A stretch of DNA of 64,000 nt. Origin: a phage. A program made the position numbers and the translations under genes. The stretch lies in NCBI GenBank assembly GCA_024674815.1, contig GCA_024674815.1_4104.1; one strand, given 5' to 3'. The number at the start of each line of letters is the position of its first letter. Position 1 is the first letter of the stretch. Below are positions 3,166 to 15,708 of this stretch, piece by piece. A model generated the notes under the pieces. That model worked only from the letters and a program-made list of their open reading frames with translations. It did no database searches and was not told the DNA's origin.

Positions 3166-3423
3166 TTATCTCATAGATCTATGCCAACAATTACGCGGAT
3201 CTCTTTTAAAAGTACTATCATGATCCTCCTGGCAAGTAATACAATACATGCACCCTATAACGGCCTGGCGTCGATTCTCAGGGATTTTATCGCCGCAGTC
3301 GAGGCAATGTACTAGTGATTCTCTTTGTGCGTTAATTTGCTTTCTAGCGTGGTTAACGGCTGCCTGAATCACTGCATGAATCTCGTCTTGTTCGGCCCCG
3401 TCTTTCGCGTATCCTACTGCCAT
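3166..3423 (-). CDS. TraR/DksA-family C4 zinc-finger protein (85 aa)
   Basis: CLDCG...x17...CMYCITCQ (CxxC-x17-CxxC). Confidence 0.6.
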   Translation of the reverse strand: MAVGYAKDGAEQDEIHAVIQAAVNHARKQINAQRESLVHCLDCGDKIPENRRQAVIGCMYCITCQEDHDSTFKRDPRNCWHRSMR

Positions 3424-3657: not shown

Positions 3658-3719
3658 GATATTATATAGTTACATTTGTGCACCCTATGGGTTAGTGACG
3701 TTCTCGTCTTGATGTAAGT

Positions 3720-3748
3720 ATTATGCCAGTACTGGATAATATTGTCAA
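3720..3748 (-). promoter_or_regulatory. sigma70-type promoter followed by conserved leader motif
   Basis: TTGACA-17-CATAAT; motif CACTAACCCAUAGGGUGC ~25 nt downstream. Confidence 0.5.
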
Positions 3749-3752
3749 TAGA

Positions 3753-3950
3753 TTATTTTAATTTTTTTCTGTCATTGATTAATGCTTTCAGTACTATACT
3801 AATAACTTGCAATGATTCATCAATGACAATGAAATTATTCTCTTTCATTAGATGATAGTTACCATTGATTGTATATTCTAACGAGTACTGTTTACGTTTA
3901 ATTTTTGATAATGTTTCTATTTGTTTTTGTACTGATTTCATGCTAATCAT
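3753..3950 (-). CDS. hypothetical protein (65 aa)
   Basis: track start is TTG; first ATG at 3950 used. Confidence 0.45.
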   Translation of the reverse strand: MISMKSVQKQIETLSKIKRKQYSLEYTINGNYHLMKENNFIVIDESLQVISIVLKALINDRKKLK

Positions 3951-5831: not shown

Positions 5832-5944
5832 GTACTTTCTACAAATACTTTTAAAATAGTTTTCAGTACTCAAACATTATACAATAGATACACTCCTGCA
5901 CCCTGTGGGCTAGTGAGCTATCTCTCAATGAATATATAATAGCA

Positions 5945-5975
5945 AACTGGCTGACCGAAGTCAACCACTTTTTCA
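5945..5975 (-). terminator. terminator hairpin with UUCG loop, TTGACT -35 embedded
   Basis: GGUUGAC-UUCG-GUCAGCC in minus transcript; TATTAT 17 nt downstream. Confidence 0.5.
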
Positions 5976-6861: not shown

Positions 6862-7134
6862 TTAACCTTTTAAGTACTGGCTTAAGTAGTCTTTTTGATC
6901 TTCGGTGATTGCAGTCATCTTCCCTAGTACTGGATTAATGATATAATCCCCTGTAACGTCCAGTACAGCATTCTCAGGCTGTTTAACGGCAGGGGTAGCC
7001 ATAGCCATCGCCTGGACTTGTTCGACGCTGTAACGCTCATAAAGGCGGCATTCTTCCGGTGTTAACATAGCATCAATACGTTTCATTGGTTTAATGATGC
7101 TTTCAACTTCATTTAGTACTTGATTAACGTTCAT
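6862..7134 (-). CDS. hypothetical protein (90 aa)
   Basis: ATG ORF. Confidence 0.55.
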   Translation of the reverse strand: MNVNQVLNEVESIIKPMKRIDAMLTPEECRLYERYSVEQVQAMAMATPAVKQPENAVLDVTGDYIINPVLGKMTAITEDQKDYLSQYLKG

Positions 7135-7185
7135 GGTATAATCCCCAATATAAGCGGCCTAAATCGACCACTAACGATGATTTGA

Positions 7186-7993: not shown

Positions 7994-8230
7994 TGTTTTG
8001 ATTCCTTTGATTTGGAAGGAGAACCGTTTCCCCCTCTCGATGTAAAACATTATACGCTAATCTCTTAATCGTGCAAGTACTTTTTATTACTTTTTGCAAA
8101 ATACTTTAAACGCTCTCAATCGCGTTCTTACAGCCTTAACGCCACCAGCTAGGGCAATGCATCAGATAATCAGTTTAATGCGTTAGAATCGTTTCTAGGC
8201 GGTGCTGGTGGCATGGTAAACTATAAACAC

Positions 8231-8256
8231 AAAAAAGCCCACCGTTTAAGGTGGGC
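8231..8256 (-). terminator. intrinsic terminator
   Basis: GCCCACC-uuaaac-GGUGGGC then U6 in minus transcript. Confidence 0.6.
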
Positions 8257-8278
8257 TAGTGATTCAATACTTTAATTG

Positions 8279-8761
8279 TTATGCTTCAACTTTGCGATGA
8301 GCTTCGATCCATTCCTCGCGAGTCATACCGCTTTCTTTGATAGCGTCCAGTACTACCGCAATGCAGTTACCGCGTACAGGAATCAAATGTTCTTCACCGT
8401 TATCAAGTACTACAGTAACACGTTCTTGAATCCATTTTTTAGGTTTAGATTCCGGCTTATCTTCACCGTACTTAACCGCCAGGGCTTTATGTGCCATTTC
8501 AACAACCACTTCCAGATCCAATCCAGACACCGCCGCCTGGATACTTTCAATTGTTGCTTGCAGTTCGGCTTCACGGGCTTTTTTCTGTTCTTCCAGTTCT
8601 GCTACCTTTTTGGCTTGTAATTCTTTCGCTTCACTGTAAGCAATGTTAAAATTGTTGCGTACAGCTTTCATGGTATCGTTATCCAGGTCAGCCAGCAATT
8701 CAGCAGCAATAACAGTATCGTTTGAAATCAGTGCTTTCAGGAATGATTTTACATTAGCCAT
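8279..8761 (-). CDS. hypothetical coiled-coil protein (160 aa)
   Basis: ATG with GAGGA SD; track start is TTG. Confidence 0.6.
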   Translation of the reverse strand: MANVKSFLKALISNDTVIAAELLADLDNDTMKAVRNNFNIAYSEAKELQAKKVAELEEQKKAREAELQATIESIQAAVSGLDLEVVVEMAHKALAVKYGEDKPESKPKKWIQERVTVVLDNGEEHLIPVRGNCIAVVLDAIKESGMTREEWIEAHRKVEA

Positions 8762-8956
8762 TTTATAAATCCTCAATTAAAGTTTAGTTTACGTTTATTA
8801 GTGTATCAAAGTTTTATCGACGTGTCCAGTTTTTCGTTCGACTTACTGGCGGTCTACTTAGTGCTCCCCGTCTTGATGTAATACATTCTACGCCTTTTTG
8901 TGGTAATGTCAACTACTTTTTTAAAACTATTTTTAAAGTATGCAGTACTACAAAAC

Positions 8957-8982
8957 AAAAAAGCCCACTGTTTAAGGTGGGC
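8957..8982 (-). terminator. intrinsic terminator (copy of 8231-8256)
   Basis: same hairpin + U-run. Confidence 0.6.
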
Positions 8983-9000
8983 TAGTGATTCAGTACTATA

Positions 9001-9300
9001 TTATAAACAGTTAATTACTCCGGTGTGCGTTACTTTCTCAGTATCCATAACCGTGACCGATCCACGCTTAGTACTTGCATCATAATAAATTGTTGTGCTA
9101 CCGTTTTCGTCTTCTTCATGGAACGGCCCGTTTTTAAATGCTTCTGGCTGGATCTCTAAATCCTTTAAAACAATCTCGCCTGTACTTTCATTGGTCATCG
9201 CTACCGTGCACTGAATGAATTTTTCACTACTTACATCTAACGACGCATTAACAGCGAAAGAGGAAACAGATAAAGCCAGGGCGATGATTGCAATTTTCAT
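9001..9300 (-). CDS. secreted/periplasmic small protein (99 aa)
   Basis: N-terminal signal-peptide-like MKIAIIALALSVSSFA. Confidence 0.6.
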   Translation of the reverse strand: MKIAIIALALSVSSFAVNASLDVSSEKFIQCTVAMTNESTGEIVLKDLEIQPEAFKNGPFHEEDENGSTTIYYDASTKRGSVTVMDTEKVTHTGVINCL

Positions 9301-9320
9301 TTGATTATCCTTAGTTACCA

Positions 9321-9379
9321 GGGGAAACCGTTTCCCCTTGCGATGTAAAATATTATACAGTACTAAAAACTAATTGCAA
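9321..9379 (-). promoter_or_regulatory. PeSL-like cassette
   Basis: TTGCAA-16-TATAAT; hairpin. Confidence 0.55.
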
Positions 9380-9384
9380 GTACT

Positions 9385-9621
9385 TTATGATTTTTTATAA
9401 AACATTTCGGCAGTGATATTTTTACCCGTTGGTTGTACTTTATCCAGAATTTTTTGATGCCCTGGCCGTCCAAATGAATATGATCCGTAAACCGTAAACC
9501 AGTAGTTACCCTCAGTGTTTACATGTACAGCACAATAGGGAACGCCCCGCGATTCATCACCAATAAAGTGTGATACCGTTCCCGTTACATTAGCAGACGT
9601 TGATTTGATTTGTTCAAGCAT
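9385..9621 (-). CDS. hypothetical protein (78 aa)
   Basis: ATG ORF; cassette 9643-9694. Confidence 0.5.
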   Translation of the reverse strand: MLEQIKSTSANVTGTVSHFIGDESRGVPYCAVHVNTEGNYWFTVYGSYSFGRPGHQKILDKVQPTGKNITAEMFYKKS

Positions 9622-9728
9622 TTTCTTATTCCTTAGTTACCAGGGGAACCGCTCCCCTATGCAAAACATTATACGCGTTTAAAAACTATTAGCAAGTATT
9701 TTAATAAAAAGTATTTGAAAAATAGTTG

Positions 9729-9757
9729 TTGACAAGTGCATCCAGTACTGGCATAAT
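9729..9757 (+). promoter_or_regulatory. plus-strand sigma70-type promoter
   Basis: TTGACA-17-CATAAT on plus strand, no ORF downstream. Confidence 0.5.
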
Positions 9758-9763
9758 TACTAC

Positions 9764-9868
9764 ATCAAGACGAAACAGTCACTAACCCACCGGGTGCCGA
9801 GATCCGTCTATTAAATGATTCAGTACTGAAAAAGTAACGGGGAGTTATTATCTCCCCGCGTTGTTATT
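9764..9868 (+). ncRNA. candidate ~100-nt small RNA
   Basis: promoter 9729-9757, conserved CACUAACCCACCGGGUGC motif, hairpin+U-run terminator 9838-9870. Confidence 0.3.
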
Positions 9869-10085
9869 TGGTAAGGTATAAACAGAAGTCACCTTTATTT
9901 GCTACGCCGCCAGTGTAACGCGATGAATAGTTAGAAATATCTTGTACTTCTGCTATTACCAGTGTATCATCATTCATTTCGTCGCAGAAGCAAACGGCTG
10001 GATCTTTTACGCCGATATTGTCTGCATGTTCCCGCATAGATTTAACCAGTGCTTCCAGTTGAGAAAGAGTAGTGATATTAGCCAT
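9864..10085 (-). CDS. hypothetical protein (73 aa)
   Basis: ATG with GAGGA SD; cassette 10105-10163. Confidence 0.5.
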   Translation of the reverse strand: MANITTLSQLEALVKSMREHADNIGVKDPAVCFCDEMNDDTLVIAEVQDISNYSSRYTGGVANKGDFCLYLTK

Positions 10086-10169
10086 TTTATTTTCCTCATT
10101 ACCAGGGAGAACCATTTCTCCCCTTGATGTAAACTATTATACAGTACTAAAAACTAATTGCAAGTACTT

Positions 10170-10358
10170 TTAATTAAATTCCATAAAATCATTTTCAACG
10201 TGCACAACAATCTGATTATTTTTAAAGGACGCAGAAAACTCTATACAATCATAAACCGCTTTTTCTGTTACCAGACTATGAGCACCAATCGGATTAATTG
10301 GGGATTGAATTGTTTCAATCTCGTTACCTTGTTCATTAACGATTAAAATATTAAACAT
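10170..10358 (-). CDS. hypothetical protein (62 aa)
   Basis: ATG ORF. Confidence 0.45.
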   Translation of the reverse strand: MFNILIVNEQGNEIETIQSPINPIGAHSLVTEKAVYDCIEFSASFKNNQIVVHVENDFMEFN

Positions 10359-12139: not shown

Positions 12140-12168
12140 TTGACAGCATTATCAAGTACTGGCATAAT
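12140..12168 (+). promoter_or_regulatory. plus-strand sigma70-type promoter
   Basis: TTGACA-17-CATAAT; conserved motif downstream. Confidence 0.5.
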
Positions 12169-12283
12169 ATACCCCATGACAACAGCTAACCCACCGGGTG
12201 CACAATTGTAACTGTAATAAACTACTTTTTCTATAGATACACTCCCGCACCCTATGGGCTACGGCTTATCTGCCAATGAATAC

Positions 12284-12312
12284 ATTATGCCAGTACTGAC
12301 AAAATAAGTCAA
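12284..12312 (-). promoter_or_regulatory. minus-strand promoter convergent with 12140-12168
   Basis: TTGACT-17-CATAAT; conserved motif downstream. Confidence 0.5.
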
Positions 12313-13823: not shown

Positions 13824-13919
13824 CTTTCTATATAGGAGTACTATTATTCAGTACTGAATCAATCCAGGGGAACTATCTTTCTATATAGGAGTACTATTAT
13901 TCAGTACTGAATCAATCCA
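13824..13919. repeat. 2 x 43-bp direct repeat
   Basis: unit TCTTTCTATATAGGAGTACTATTATTCAGTACTGAATCAATCCA twice, 53-bp period. Confidence 0.6.
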
Positions 13920-14071: not shown

Positions 14072-14099
14072 TTGACTTGATCCTGAAAAAGCGTATAAT
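14072..14099 (+). promoter_or_regulatory. plus-strand sigma70-type promoter
   Basis: TTGACT-16-TATAAT. Confidence 0.5.
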
Positions 14100-14103
14100 T
14101 ACT

Positions 14104-14165
14104 ACATAGACGCGAGAAAGCGGAAACCCCAGAGGGTGCGGAATTACGCCCAAAATTCAAGATAT
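14104..14165 (+). ncRNA. candidate small RNA A
   Basis: own promoter; shares GAGAAAG..GGGUGC..UUACGCCCAAAAUUCA with 14318-14380. Confidence 0.3.
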
Positions 14166-14287
14166 AAAAAAAGGATACACTCCCGCACCCTAGCAGGTAA
14201 ACGCACTTTCTCAGTACTGAAATATAGTACCATAGTCCGGCCCAGGATAGCAAGCAAATTAATTAAAACTTTTTTGCTTCCAGGGTA

Positions 14288-14315
14288 TTGCTTTATTTTT
14301 TCAGTACTGTATAAT
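14288..14315 (+). promoter_or_regulatory. plus-strand promoter
   Basis: TTGCTT-16-TATAAT. Confidence 0.45.
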
Positions 14316-14317
14316 AG

Positions 14318-14380
14318 TTCCATCAAGTCGAGAAAGACTCAAGCCCACCGGGTGCATAGTTACGCCCAAAATTCAGTACT
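14318..14380 (+). ncRNA. candidate small RNA B (paralog of A)
   Basis: conserved sequence blocks with 14104-14165. Confidence 0.3.
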
Positions 14381-14534
14381 GAAAAATTTTTAAAAATATC
14401 CGGCCAGGTCGTTGACATTGCCCCCAGTTTATAAGATAATGATTCCAGATTCAGAAAAATCTAACTACAGATACTGCGGGGAAACTATCCCCACGCGGTA
14501 GGGGAACTATTGGAAAAACAAAATAAAATTTTGA

Positions 14535-14680
14535 TTTAGCCGTCTATACTTCCAGACGTGTAACCATCTAGCCGTTTAGCCGTCTAGCCATCCAGCCATC
14601 CAGAAATCTAGCCGTTTAGCCGTCTAGATGGATAGCCATCTTTACTTCCAGACTTCTGGAGGGCTAGACATATCTACGTC
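14535..14680. repeat. iteron-like short direct/inverted repeat array
   Basis: repeated TAGCCGTCT/AGCCATCC units, palindrome CCATCTAGATGG, CTTCCAGAC x2. Confidence 0.5.
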
Positions 14681-15708
14681 CAAAATCCATCCAGGGTAAC
14701 TACACCCAAAATCCGTCAGTACTATACCATAGATCTATCTTTTGAAAGGGAGTATTCAGTACTGCCATCATAGCCCTCACTATGTTACCCTAGGAGGATG
14801 AAGACTATCATGTAGTACTGAATACTGTTAGAGGGAATCCACCAGCTTGTGCTGGTGGCATAATGCTTTAGATTAAAATCAGTACTGACACCATTCTGTT
14901 AATATCAGTACTGTTATTACAATTTTCATATGAGGTTCAAAAAGATGTACCACCACAGGAGGAACTATCTTTTCTGTACTGTCTCACGACAGGAGGTAGA
15001 GTAAATGAATTGTTCGCAGCAACTCATCTCTCTATGTAGAACATTATACAGTACTGAATCATAATGTCAATAACTTTCTTTCACCATTCAGTACTGATAT
15101 TCTTGAGAACTACCCGTCTACAAACATCATTATATCCCACAAATCATAAACGTCCCAACGTAAATTTCAACTTTCGAAGATCCAACTTTTATTTCATAGG
15201 TACTCCAAAATTTTTAGGATCGAGATTTAGGATGGAGTACTAACCAACTTTTTGCTGGAGCCTCAAGGGGTAATTGAATTTTACCCCGAAGGGTAAAAGG
15301 GTAATTGTAATTAAGGTGAAAGTAATAATTCAGTACTAATCATTGCGTGATTACTTTTGATTACATTTGATGTAATTTGCAAAATGGAAAAGGAGCTTGG
15401 AAACTACAAAGTACGGCAGACTTCCTCTGCCTACTTAGTGGCATATCAGTACTGAATCATTCACACACATTTCCGTGCATTCTTGAGCAATCTTGTCTAT
15501 ACTAATCAGTACTGAATCATATATAATCATTCTGTGATTCTACGGTGCTCATATAAATGTTTATATATGATTACTTATGACTACCTATGATTACGGGGTT
15601 TAGCCTGGGGAGAATCCTAGTGATCGCATTTGTCCAGGCTGAATTTTAACAATTCGCCTGTACATAAAGGTTGTTCACTAGGAGCTTCCCCTGTCTCTAT
15701 GTGTTTAA

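Follow-up and report, generated by a model that had tools for sequence, protein, structure and literature searches.

The nearest described system to the element reported here is the PeSL cassette of T4-type phages, in which strong sigma-70 promoters and GGGG...CCCC stem-loops lie among ORFans and are shuffled as modules (PMC2839356, PMC4122927). We analyzed a 64,000-nucleotide stretch of phage DNA (NCBI GenBank assembly GCA_024674815.1, contig GCA_024674815.1_4104.1; hereafter the window) and describe a promoter-to-terminator unit on its plus strand, at positions 9729–9870. The unit belongs to a family of about 100 cassettes from RaK2-like jumbo phages of Escherichia, Klebsiella, Salmonella, Cronobacter, Pectobacterium, Erwinia and Yersinia, and comparative evidence makes it probable that these are genuine, expressed and structured non-coding RNA (ncRNA) elements. 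Four elements make up the cassette: the promoter, which is of near-consensus sigma-70 type, two hairpins (H1 on the 5' side, then H2) and a conserved single-stranded box. Like PeSLs, the cassettes are small and repeated, combine a strong early promoter with a stem-loop terminator, and occupy ORFan-rich, plastic early regions; the standard early cassettes of the window and the placement of some promoters inside terminators also match the PeSL description. PeSLs are, however, described as promoter plus terminator, and no conserved transcribed H1-H2-box module figures in their descriptions. In addition, the stem-loop of our unit lies downstream of its promoter, closes an RNA of 105 nt and serves a convergent gene, whereas in the paralogues at 1394–1359 and 5967–5936 it overlaps the −35 hexamer. 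PeSL copies also recombine with one another or give rise to mini-circles; for our unit, the divergence of phage EJP2 exactly upstream of the −35 hexamer is at most suggestive of this.

The lambda OOP and PR' 6S RNAs are, like the RNA predicted here, short non-coding transcripts that run from a strong phage promoter to an intrinsic terminator and are convergent with a protein gene. Both are single-copy, OOP forming a long antisense overlap and PR' a Q-loading platform, whereas our unit carries a conserved structured 5' module, found in about nine copies per terminal repeat, and overlaps its convergent gene only minimally (the gene ends at 9864, and a substantial coding overlap of the OOP type is absent). 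The HK022 put and lambda/P22 nut sites likewise form nascent-RNA hairpins just past strong early promoters. The cassette differs from them in having no boxA and no demonstrable sequence similarity, and many of its copies are directly terminated with nothing downstream; two hairpins after a promoter are the sole resemblance to put, an RNA whose two hairpins render polymerase resistant to termination in the absence of protein factors. In nut-type and rrn-type antitermination sites a boxA of consensus CGCUCUUA or UGCUCUUUAACAA stands beside the hairpin, and neither form occurs in 9764–9837 or in the family consensus. Stem-loops at the very 5' end act as stabilizers in the E. coli ompA 5' untranslated region (UTR), and phage SP82 has a polypurine stabilizer that works in Bacillus. 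Our cassettes resemble these in having a hairpin 2–5 nt from the 5' end and, behind it in many copies, a purine-rich, Shine-Dalgarno (SD)-like run (GGAGG, GGGAG), but such stabilizers need no invariant second hairpin or box, and the corresponding spacer of our unit, CGAGA, is not SD-like. Finally, RNA-seq of the related jumbo phage PA5oct has revealed highly transcribed regions of its long terminal repeat that lack open reading frames (ORFs) and yield ncRNAs of 236–451 nt (PMC7318152). We could not find the H1-H2-box module in PA5oct ncRNA001 (best model score 6.6 bits), and there is no homology between the two.

Our analysis started from an earlier note that had read the locus as a plus-strand promoter and terminator enclosing no ORF, and thus as a candidate small RNA (sRNA) of ~100 nt. 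A promoter scan locates the proposed TTGACA-17-CATAAT promoter exactly at 9729–9757, with the −35 hexamer at 9729–9734 and the −10 hexamer CATAAT at 9752–9757. It matches the consensus at 11 of 12 positions over a 17-bp spacer, and the spacer segment 9744–9751 contains an AGTACT motif (9744–9749) and the TG of an extended −10 element (9749–9750). An A/T-rich upstream region is present, as in the promoter criterion for PeSLs. From this geometry we predict that transcription starts at 9764, the A of a cAUC sequence 7 nt past the −10 hexamer, and the same cAU start context recurs in about 80 units of the family. The minus-strand promoter of the next gene (9695–9668) is arranged back-to-back with that of the unit, 33 bp away.

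At the other end, the hairpin and U-rich tail that the note had placed at 9838–9870 are indeed found there. The hairpin (9838–9858) reads CGGGGAG-UUAUUAU-CUCCCCG, with a stem of 7–8 bp that includes six G-C pairs, and it is directly followed by a U tract, as expected of an intrinsic terminator; it is annotated as a terminator in phages G17 and Muenster. The tail is interrupted on the plus strand (CGUUGUUAUUU) and forms a better U tract on the minus strand (UACUUUUUCA). In agreement with the idea that the hairpin also ends the convergent minus-strand gene (9864–10115, 83 amino acids), the G17 record assigns the terminator to that gene. The structure would thus act bidirectionally, and the predicted RNA has in common with the gene the terminator and no more than 7 coding nucleotides. 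Hfq-dependent sRNAs carry a long uninterrupted run of U behind the terminator hairpin, a feature that the unit does not show, its tail being CGUUGUUAUUU.

We find no ORF of at least 30 codons on either strand of 9622–9863, and the sole AUG of the predicted RNA opens a frame of four codons. The Salmonella phage SD-6_S16 record annotates a 54-residue minus-strand "hypothetical protein" at 30–194, across the unit (approximately 9669–9833 in window numbering); as the equivalent region of the window holds no ORF of 30 codons or more, this annotation is probably an over-call. The transcribed part does contain conserved sequence, as had been suggested, in the form of two repeated motifs, CTAACCCACCGGGTGC at 9782–9797 (5 matches in the window versus 0.10 expected) and the 12-bp palindrome TTCAGTACTGAA at 9819–9830 (6 versus 0.02 expected), whose AGUACUG is kept at this position in most terminated relatives. 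The predicted ncRNA would extend from 9764 to approximately 9866–9870, for a length of 103–107 nt. The in silico evidence therefore sustains the reading as a non-coding unit, since the promoter is kept in ten of ten orthologues, two hairpins backed by covariation or conservation follow it, about 18 relatives share its geometry and coding capacity is zero; "candidate" stays the apt word for an sRNA at 9764–9870. What did not hold was the description of the plus strand as otherwise silent, because similar plus-strand units start at 12140, 14072 and ~14290. The note had overlooked these further units, the existence of a multi-copy family, and the presence of the same 5' module before promoters and genes elsewhere. 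This last point suggests that the RNA may act as a 5' module, beyond the role of a classical trans-acting sRNA.

The family was delineated at several levels of stringency. In the window, the segment 9718–9816 is 74% identical over 99 nt to an inverted copy at 3661–3759, a looser pattern finds seven copies, and a covariance model finds nine units between 1306 and 14375 and none that is credible in the 15–64-kb region. Our unit (9767–9817) scores 34.7 bits (E = 3e-8), fifth among the nine. Lower-stringency BLAST located an orthologous unit of ~71% identity in Klebsiella phages K64-1, RaK2 and Muenster, and no more than the core in Salmonella phage Munch, Klebsiella phage fENko-Kae01 and Erwinia phage Hallingskeid; Muenster and Munch hold eight copies each. 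A pattern scan of IMG/VR added RaK2, 121Q, GAP32 and CBB, genomes of Yersinia-phage size and one 109-kb metagenomic contig. The pooled loci comprise 85 distinct sequences, about 80 of which are genuine units. The covariance model, built from 12 units of equal length and searched against the window and 16 loci, returned 103 matches, all of them in early or terminal-repeat regions, and in Muenster and fENko-Kae01 units fall inside the annotated terminal repeats of ~20 kb. By these searches, the element is present in all RaK2-like jumbo phages examined.

The copies are all laid out alike: after a strong promoter come a leader of 13–22 nt, the sequence [AG]CCCA[CT]NGGGTGC, five mostly purine bases, and TGTATCTAT or a close variant. 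A promoter can be called in 80 of 83 distinct units, 67 of these 80 promoters score 10–11 out of 12, and the spacer is almost always 17 bp. Many of the promoters contain an extended −10 element, such as TGnTATTAT or TGGCATAAT, with the start predicted at the A of cAU. They are thus distinct from the promoters of the standard early cassettes, which are of the TTGCAA, 16-bp spacer, TATAAT type. In both the pattern and the covariance-model scans, the H2 motif is never found without a promoter or reversed relative to it. Our unit follows the family spacing between promoter and H2, with a leader of 21 nt.

Comparison of the copies reveals how the RNA module is built. H2 folds as ACCC-ACC-GGGU followed by GC (9785–9797), and its sequence, ACCCACCGGGTGC, is an exact match to the signature RCCCAYNGGGUGC. 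All 90 distinct copies keep the CCC/GGG pairs, save for an innermost C-G pair changed to U-A in two of them, and the outer pair alternates between A-U (44 copies) and G-U (42). Across the helices, G·U combinations outnumber A·C combinations 58 to 5, which identifies the transcribed (sense) strand as the one that folds. After H2 comes a purine-rich spacer of 5 nt, CGAGA in our unit, and then the box (9798–9811 together), as defined by the column composition of the alignment. The consensus for this part is GC-RRARR-U-[G/C][U/C][A/G]-U-C-Y-A-U. Placed 5 nt past the GC and of the form U-S-Y-R-U-C-Y-A-U, the box occurs in a major version, UGUAUCUAU, and in a minority CCG variant, UCCGUCUAU, which is seen in ~25% of copies and at 9803–9811 in our unit. 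Pairing of the box with the leader or the H1 loop, as a pseudoknot or long-range helix, was tested across the family and gave a null result (4.80 versus 4.77 ± 0.10 with permuted partners), even if individual copies show suggestive pairs (AGAUA/UAUCU, AGACG/CGUCU, AUAGA/UCUAU). The lack of such pairing is in keeping with a box that is recognized as a single strand. We also rejected a micro-ORF in the box (NUG-UAU-CUA-UAG with an SD-like GGAGG), since its start codon and frame vary between copies, the SD is directly adjacent to the start and our unit has neither, and a leaderless peptide from a 5' AUG, as AUG starts a minority of copies and the frames differ.

H1 precedes H2 at a position shared by the family and is much more variable in sequence. 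In our unit it folds as GAC-GAAACA-GUC (9769–9780), joined to H2 by the linker ACUA, and it has the features of the family hairpin, namely 3–5 bp, a purine-rich loop of 4–9 nt and a distance of 2–4 nt to H2. In a shuffle test restricted by position, a helix of at least 3 bp ending 2–4 nt before H2 is found in 36 of 36 distinct long leaders (13.1 expected), and one of at least 4 bp in 27 of 36 (4.2 expected from shuffled leaders). The stems are of 23 types, among them UGGC/GCCG, GCCG/CGGC, ACCAC/GUGGU, AGCA/UGCU and GAC/GUC, and the loops are purine-rich (for example AGAUAA, AGAACAA, GAGAAA and GAAACA). In the covariance-model alignment, the four pairs of the helix all show double-sided changes, with pairing in 93% of cells. 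The score for covariation, 0.366, is reached by none of 500 shuffled alignments (0.130 ± 0.009), and sliding the partners gives no more than 0.044. MAFFT with RNAalifold recovered H2 alone, since the lengths of the H1 loop and linker differ between copies. Short leaders (14–15 nt, AUAGAAACAAnCUA) keep an A-rich stretch and form at most a 3-bp UAG/CUA helix that abuts H2.

Orthologues of the unit itself show the same pattern of constraint. In an alignment of ten, which included the Klebsiella phages at ~71% identity, the two promoter hexamers, H2 and the terminator hairpin are kept in all ten, the −35 hexamer being invariant down to K64-1 and Muenster and the −10 hexamer reading YATAAT throughout. 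The H1 stem is retained as its loop drifts (GAAACA, GAGAUA, AAAACA, GAUACA, GAGAAA), and in the Klebsiella phages the stem is swapped for AGC/GCU. H2 is invariant except for the third base of its loop (C or A), and the terminator stem shows compensatory changes. In phage EJP2, the break falls exactly at the −35 hexamer: all that precedes it is unrelated, and the unit is intact.

The cassettes occur in three kinds of context. About 18 distinct units are terminated: their terminator hairpin starts 39–41 nt past H2 and their predicted RNAs measure 90–106 nt. Our unit belongs to this class, with 40 nt between H2 and hairpin. In annotated phages the terminated units oppose early genes and share a bidirectional terminator with the convergent gene; such units make up about a quarter of all cassettes, and each annotated lineage retains two or three. 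Gene-linked units run in the orientation of the gene, either 37–78 nt upstream of a standard early promoter or straight into an SD-ATG (locus L023, position 12616). Several of these have their −35 hexamer in the loop of the upstream gene's terminator (1394–1359 and 5967–5936); at these two minus-strand sites the T tract of the terminator runs into an extended −10 element (GGGATTGACTCCGGTCAGTCCCTTTGCTATTAT), a very compact overlap of terminator and promoter. The third class consists of convergent pairs, one per genome, represented in the window at 12140–12312. A near-consensus Fur box (GATAATGATAATCATT) lies between the convergent units of Munch (locus L005, ~7110–7140), fENko-Kae01, Hallingskeid and two metagenomic relatives (loci L004, L006, L008 and L023), and is absent from the Asteriusvirus pair at 12140–12312.

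From these data we propose that host sigma-70 RNA polymerase would start at about 9764 immediately on DNA entry, make a non-coding RNA of ~105 nt and stop at the bidirectional terminator common with the convergent gene. H1 may protect the 5' end, a hairpin 2–5 nt from the end resembling the known 5' stabilizers. H2 and the box, being invariant, unpaired with the rest of the molecule and always on the RNA strand, are best read as a sequence-specific recognition site for a putative phage or host protein. Gene-linked copies would place this site at the 5' end of early mRNAs, and terminated, gene-opposed copies would deliver it as a free, abundant small RNA that serves as decoy, titrator or independent effector; as the site heads early mRNAs in some places and free sRNAs in others, we favor the view that gene-linked copies are targets and terminated copies decoys or effectors. 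The comparative basis covers the conserved near-consensus promoter, the selected sense-strand RNA structure, the modular cassette and the subfamily of fixed geometry. We put the combined explanation, cassette plus protein recognition and decoy, at a probability of roughly 0.5; its recognition and decoy part, taken separately, is tentative. It is also conceivable, at a somewhat more speculative level, that H1-H2-box is a new class of phage RNA for the first minutes of infection, which would capture or reprogram a host machine through the invariant H2 and box (RNA polymerase, a ribonuclease or an RNA-sensing defence protein), with the stand-alone copies forming a family of decoy or effector sRNAs across RaK2-like jumbo phages.

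Several observations weigh against this interpretation. The H1 of our unit has only 3 bp, and RNAfold favors an AGACG/CGUCU helix around H2 instead; the z-score of the whole RNA (9764–9872) is just −1.7, although H2 and the terminator are kept in the fold. The alignment behind the H1 pair counts was fitted to the covariance model, so that the shuffle test of long leaders is the more independent evidence. The interrupted U tract on the plus strand (CGUUGUUAUUU) means that termination may be leaky, and the genes flanking the unit encode ORFans. A fixed position next to the promoter is, moreover, also what one would expect if the target of the element were the transcribing polymerase or the DNA.

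An element of the former kind would be a cis-acting, promoter-proximal leader working on its own transcription complex, in the manner of HK022 put, of lambda nut/N or of a hairpin-stabilized pause that loads a factor. Polymerase leaving these promoters would then resist the terminators of the early region, and gene-opposed copies would produce antisense read-through across early genes. The module does always lie 13–22 nt past the start site, with two adjacent hairpins directly after a strong promoter, gene-orientation units reach promoters or genes without an intervening terminator, and a −35 hexamer embedded in an upstream gene's terminator resets the 5' end. By inspection, GGGUGC-N5-UG also agrees with the loose pause consensus G(−10)Y(−1)G(+1), which is too weak to count as evidence. 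Against such a leader stand the quarter or so of units that meet a good terminator at a fixed 39–41 nt with nothing to express beyond it, the lack of a boxA-like sequence in 9764–9837 and in the family consensus, and the variation of H1 loops within one genome, which means that H1 cannot be a single protein's boxB; we consider it unlikely. We see still less reason to favor a role at the DNA level, in which the cassette would be a PeSL-like mobile promoter/terminator module giving homology for ORFan shuffling, or the H2 palindrome (ACCC-N3-GGGT) and the box a repressor operator, with the RNA as a by-product. This would accord with the ORFan-rich early block full of repeated promoter/stem-loop cassettes, with the definition of PeSLs as strong sigma-70 promoters with GGGG...CCCC stem-loops (PMC2839356, PMC4122927), with the palindromic nature of H2 and with the rearrangement in EJP2, which is suggestive in breaking exactly at the −35 hexamer. 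Yet H1 covaries and G·U exceeds A·C by 58 to 5 in the helices, an indication that selection acts on the sense-strand transcript. At the outer H2 position, 44 copies have A and 42 have G, in each case opposite U, a change that is neutral for RNA and asymmetric for a DNA palindrome, and the motif never lies away from a promoter or in the orientation opposite to one.

The remaining two explanations we regard as very improbable, and the first of them slightly more so. It takes the RNAs as primers or R-loop formers for origin-dependent replication. At T4 oriF and oriG, a promoter is followed by a DNA-unwinding element; in our cassettes, the G-clusters (GGGUGCGGGAG in many copies) could nucleate an RNA-DNA hybrid before AT-rich DNA. 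RaK2-like phages are distant relatives of T4, and the units, which are multi-copy with AT-rich sequence downstream, work in either orientation and need no gene. But nine units per repeat far exceed the handful of known T4 origins, our copy has few G-clusters (CGAGA), and neither the fixed terminator geometry nor the gene-leader contexts would be explained. The other holds that the unit is a lambda OOP-like antisense RNA, or a functionless, decayed inverted copy of unit 3680 beside the terminator of the minus-strand gene. That the hairpin is the terminator of the convergent gene, that the RNA and the convergent mRNA would overlap at the latter's 3' end and that the unit shares 74% identity with its inverted paralogue would all be expected. 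The overlap, however, is confined to the terminator and 7 nt of the coding region at the most. From Asteriusvirus to Alcyoneusvirus the unit has persisted whole, its promoter unchanged and its H1 and terminator altered in compensatory fashion, and all annotated lineages keep their two or three terminated, gene-opposed units.

Searches against known RNAs returned nothing that would account for the cassettes. Rfam 15, including its families of CRISPR direct repeats, gave no match at the nine units (E ≤ 10, over 8–12 kb and 1–16 kb), and ARAGORN found no tRNA or tmRNA. A mimic of a CRISPR repeat was entertained from a loose, by-eye likeness to the type I-F repeat and discarded, as no Rfam direct-repeat family matches at the units. 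In 596 Gb of bacterial and archaeal genomes, the H2-box pattern has five matches, all single-copy, in unrelated metagenome-assembled genomes and at 23 bits or less, which is chance level; the pattern is thus essentially absent from host genomes and the element is not a copy of a host RNA. A short BLAST of the RNA against the window for trans targets gave no specific antisense target, most matches being to the TTCAGTACTGAA palindrome. Papers on CBB, phAPEC6, fEgEco12, fENko-Kae01 and PA5oct deal with promoters and repeats and not with the H1-H2-box element, literature searches on RaK2 and Asteriusvirus gave no description of it either, and the motif string was found in no relevant paper. The cassette, absent from Rfam and from the literature searched, is apparently undescribed.

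RaK2-like jumbo phages (121Q, PBECO4, RaK2, K64-1, GAP32, CBB and relatives) are in development for therapy, and their early program is almost wholly uncharacterized. A conserved structured RNA cassette with strong covariation support, driven by the best sigma-70 promoters of the genome, is found here in about nine copies per terminal repeat in phages of at least six host genera; counting both terminal repeats, this would amount to ~18 of the strongest promoters per virion genome. If the RNA does act as a protein decoy or as a polymerase-modifying leader, it would represent a new host-takeover device, and its short invariant motif offers a direct handle for pull-downs, Northern blots and mutagenesis. 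For annotation, the units mark the boundaries of transcription units in regions labeled solely "hypothetical protein", and some records, such as SD-6_S16, call short ORFs across them. The family is a more interesting result than the single unit.

The other eight units of the window can be described briefly. On the minus strand, the paralogue at 1306–1387 (promoter 1387–1359, RNA module 1352–1306; 39.4 bits) runs in gene orientation and is followed by a standard early promoter. The closest paralogue, unit 3680 (3660–3748, minus strand, 42.5 bits), lies ~240 nt upstream of a DksA/TraR-like zinc-finger gene (3166–3423, minus strand). This gene encodes an early protein of 85 amino acids with a DksA/TraR C4 zinc finger (Pfam E = 3.7e-9; PHROG 54) and is preceded by an untranslated stretch of ~290 nt that starts with unit 3680. 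The minus-strand paralogue at 5878–5964, whose −35 hexamer is inside the terminator hairpin of the upstream gene, scores 65.2 bits. The convergent pair at 12140–12312 has a plus-strand promoter at 12140 with its module at 12176–12221 (28.9 bits) and a minus-strand promoter at 12312 with its module at 12277–12227 (55.1 bits). Finally, a cluster at 14072–14375, ~1.1–1.3 kb from the physical genome end, contains three diverged units at 14108–14159 (plus strand, 15.7 bits), 14215–14165 (minus strand, 16.4 bits) and 14325–14375 (plus strand, 22.0 bits).

A megablast search with 9300–10300 matched 42 phage records, 36 of them near full length, at 85–97% identity. These records all belong to jumbo phages of Escherichia or Salmonella in the genus Asteriusvirus (WPEC5, G17, PBECO4, 121Q and others), and in them the region appears as a series of small minus-strand "hypothetical protein" genes; judged by these matches, the window is that of an Asteriusvirus (121Q/PBECO4-like) jumbo coliphage. 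Positions 1–700 of phage fEgEco12 align to 15435–14736 of the window at 98% identity, and the ends of fEgEco12 and its direct terminal repeat of 20,993 bp have been established by restriction digests (PMC13070987). This mapping makes 1–15.4 kb of the window the outer portion of the terminal repeat, with its sequence running in the direction of the physical end. By the same alignment, the unit is located in the early-gene direct terminal repeat (~21 kb), within a block of very short early genes. The physical left end of fEgEco12 falls at approximately 15415–15435, and the terminal sequence holds a hairpin, GGCAGAGGAAGTCTGCC. Tandem units of 8 bp, T[CT]TAGCC[GA], are found at 14535–14650, ~0.8–0.9 kb from the physical end and downstream of a plus-strand promoter at 14412–14440.

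The standard early cassettes number about 21 copies between 461 and 13824 (for example 9299–9396 and 10083–10180) and one precedes almost every small minus-strand gene (repeats D1–D3). They consist of TTGCAA-16-TATAAT, a 5' UTR hairpin (GGGGAGAA...UUCUCCCC, also given as GGGGAGAA...TTCTCCCC) and then an SD. Just upstream of both the −35 and the −10 of these promoters stands the hexamer AGTACT (AAAGTACTTGCAA...CAGTACTGTATAAT), which occurs 267 times in the window against 22.8 expected, including 9744–9749 and 9822–9827, and which in relatives of the GAP32, CBB and Yersinia types forms terminator stems (CAGTACTGG...CCAGTACT). It looks like a genome-wide protein-binding or restriction-related motif. 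Copies of the TTCAGTACTGAA palindrome lie at 9819, 12412, 13847, 13900, 14372 and 21100, two of them within a 53-bp direct repeat at 13830–13915.

The E. coli Chi sequence GCTGGTGG is present 15 times in the window (0.69 expected), at 1299, 2567, 3517, 4027, 8142, 8204, 14839, 14851, 20831, 28096, 28351, 28609, 32100, 43725 and 60066, with an inverted pair (14839–14858) ~600 bp from the genome end; in relatives it often falls within promoter spacers. These sites may protect the entering linear DNA from RecBCD. Two near-identical strong terminators on the minus strand, at 8229–8283 and 8955–8990, read AGCCCACC-UUAAAC-GGUGGGCU followed by U6, and the sub-threshold Rfam matches to Phe/Trp leaders at these sites are mere terminator matches. 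Outside the early block, a plus-strand tandem family of about eight genes occupies 21700–30000, each member with its own TATAAT promoter, an upstream GCCAGTACTTGATACTGGC hairpin and a conserved N terminus beginning MLPFGRM.

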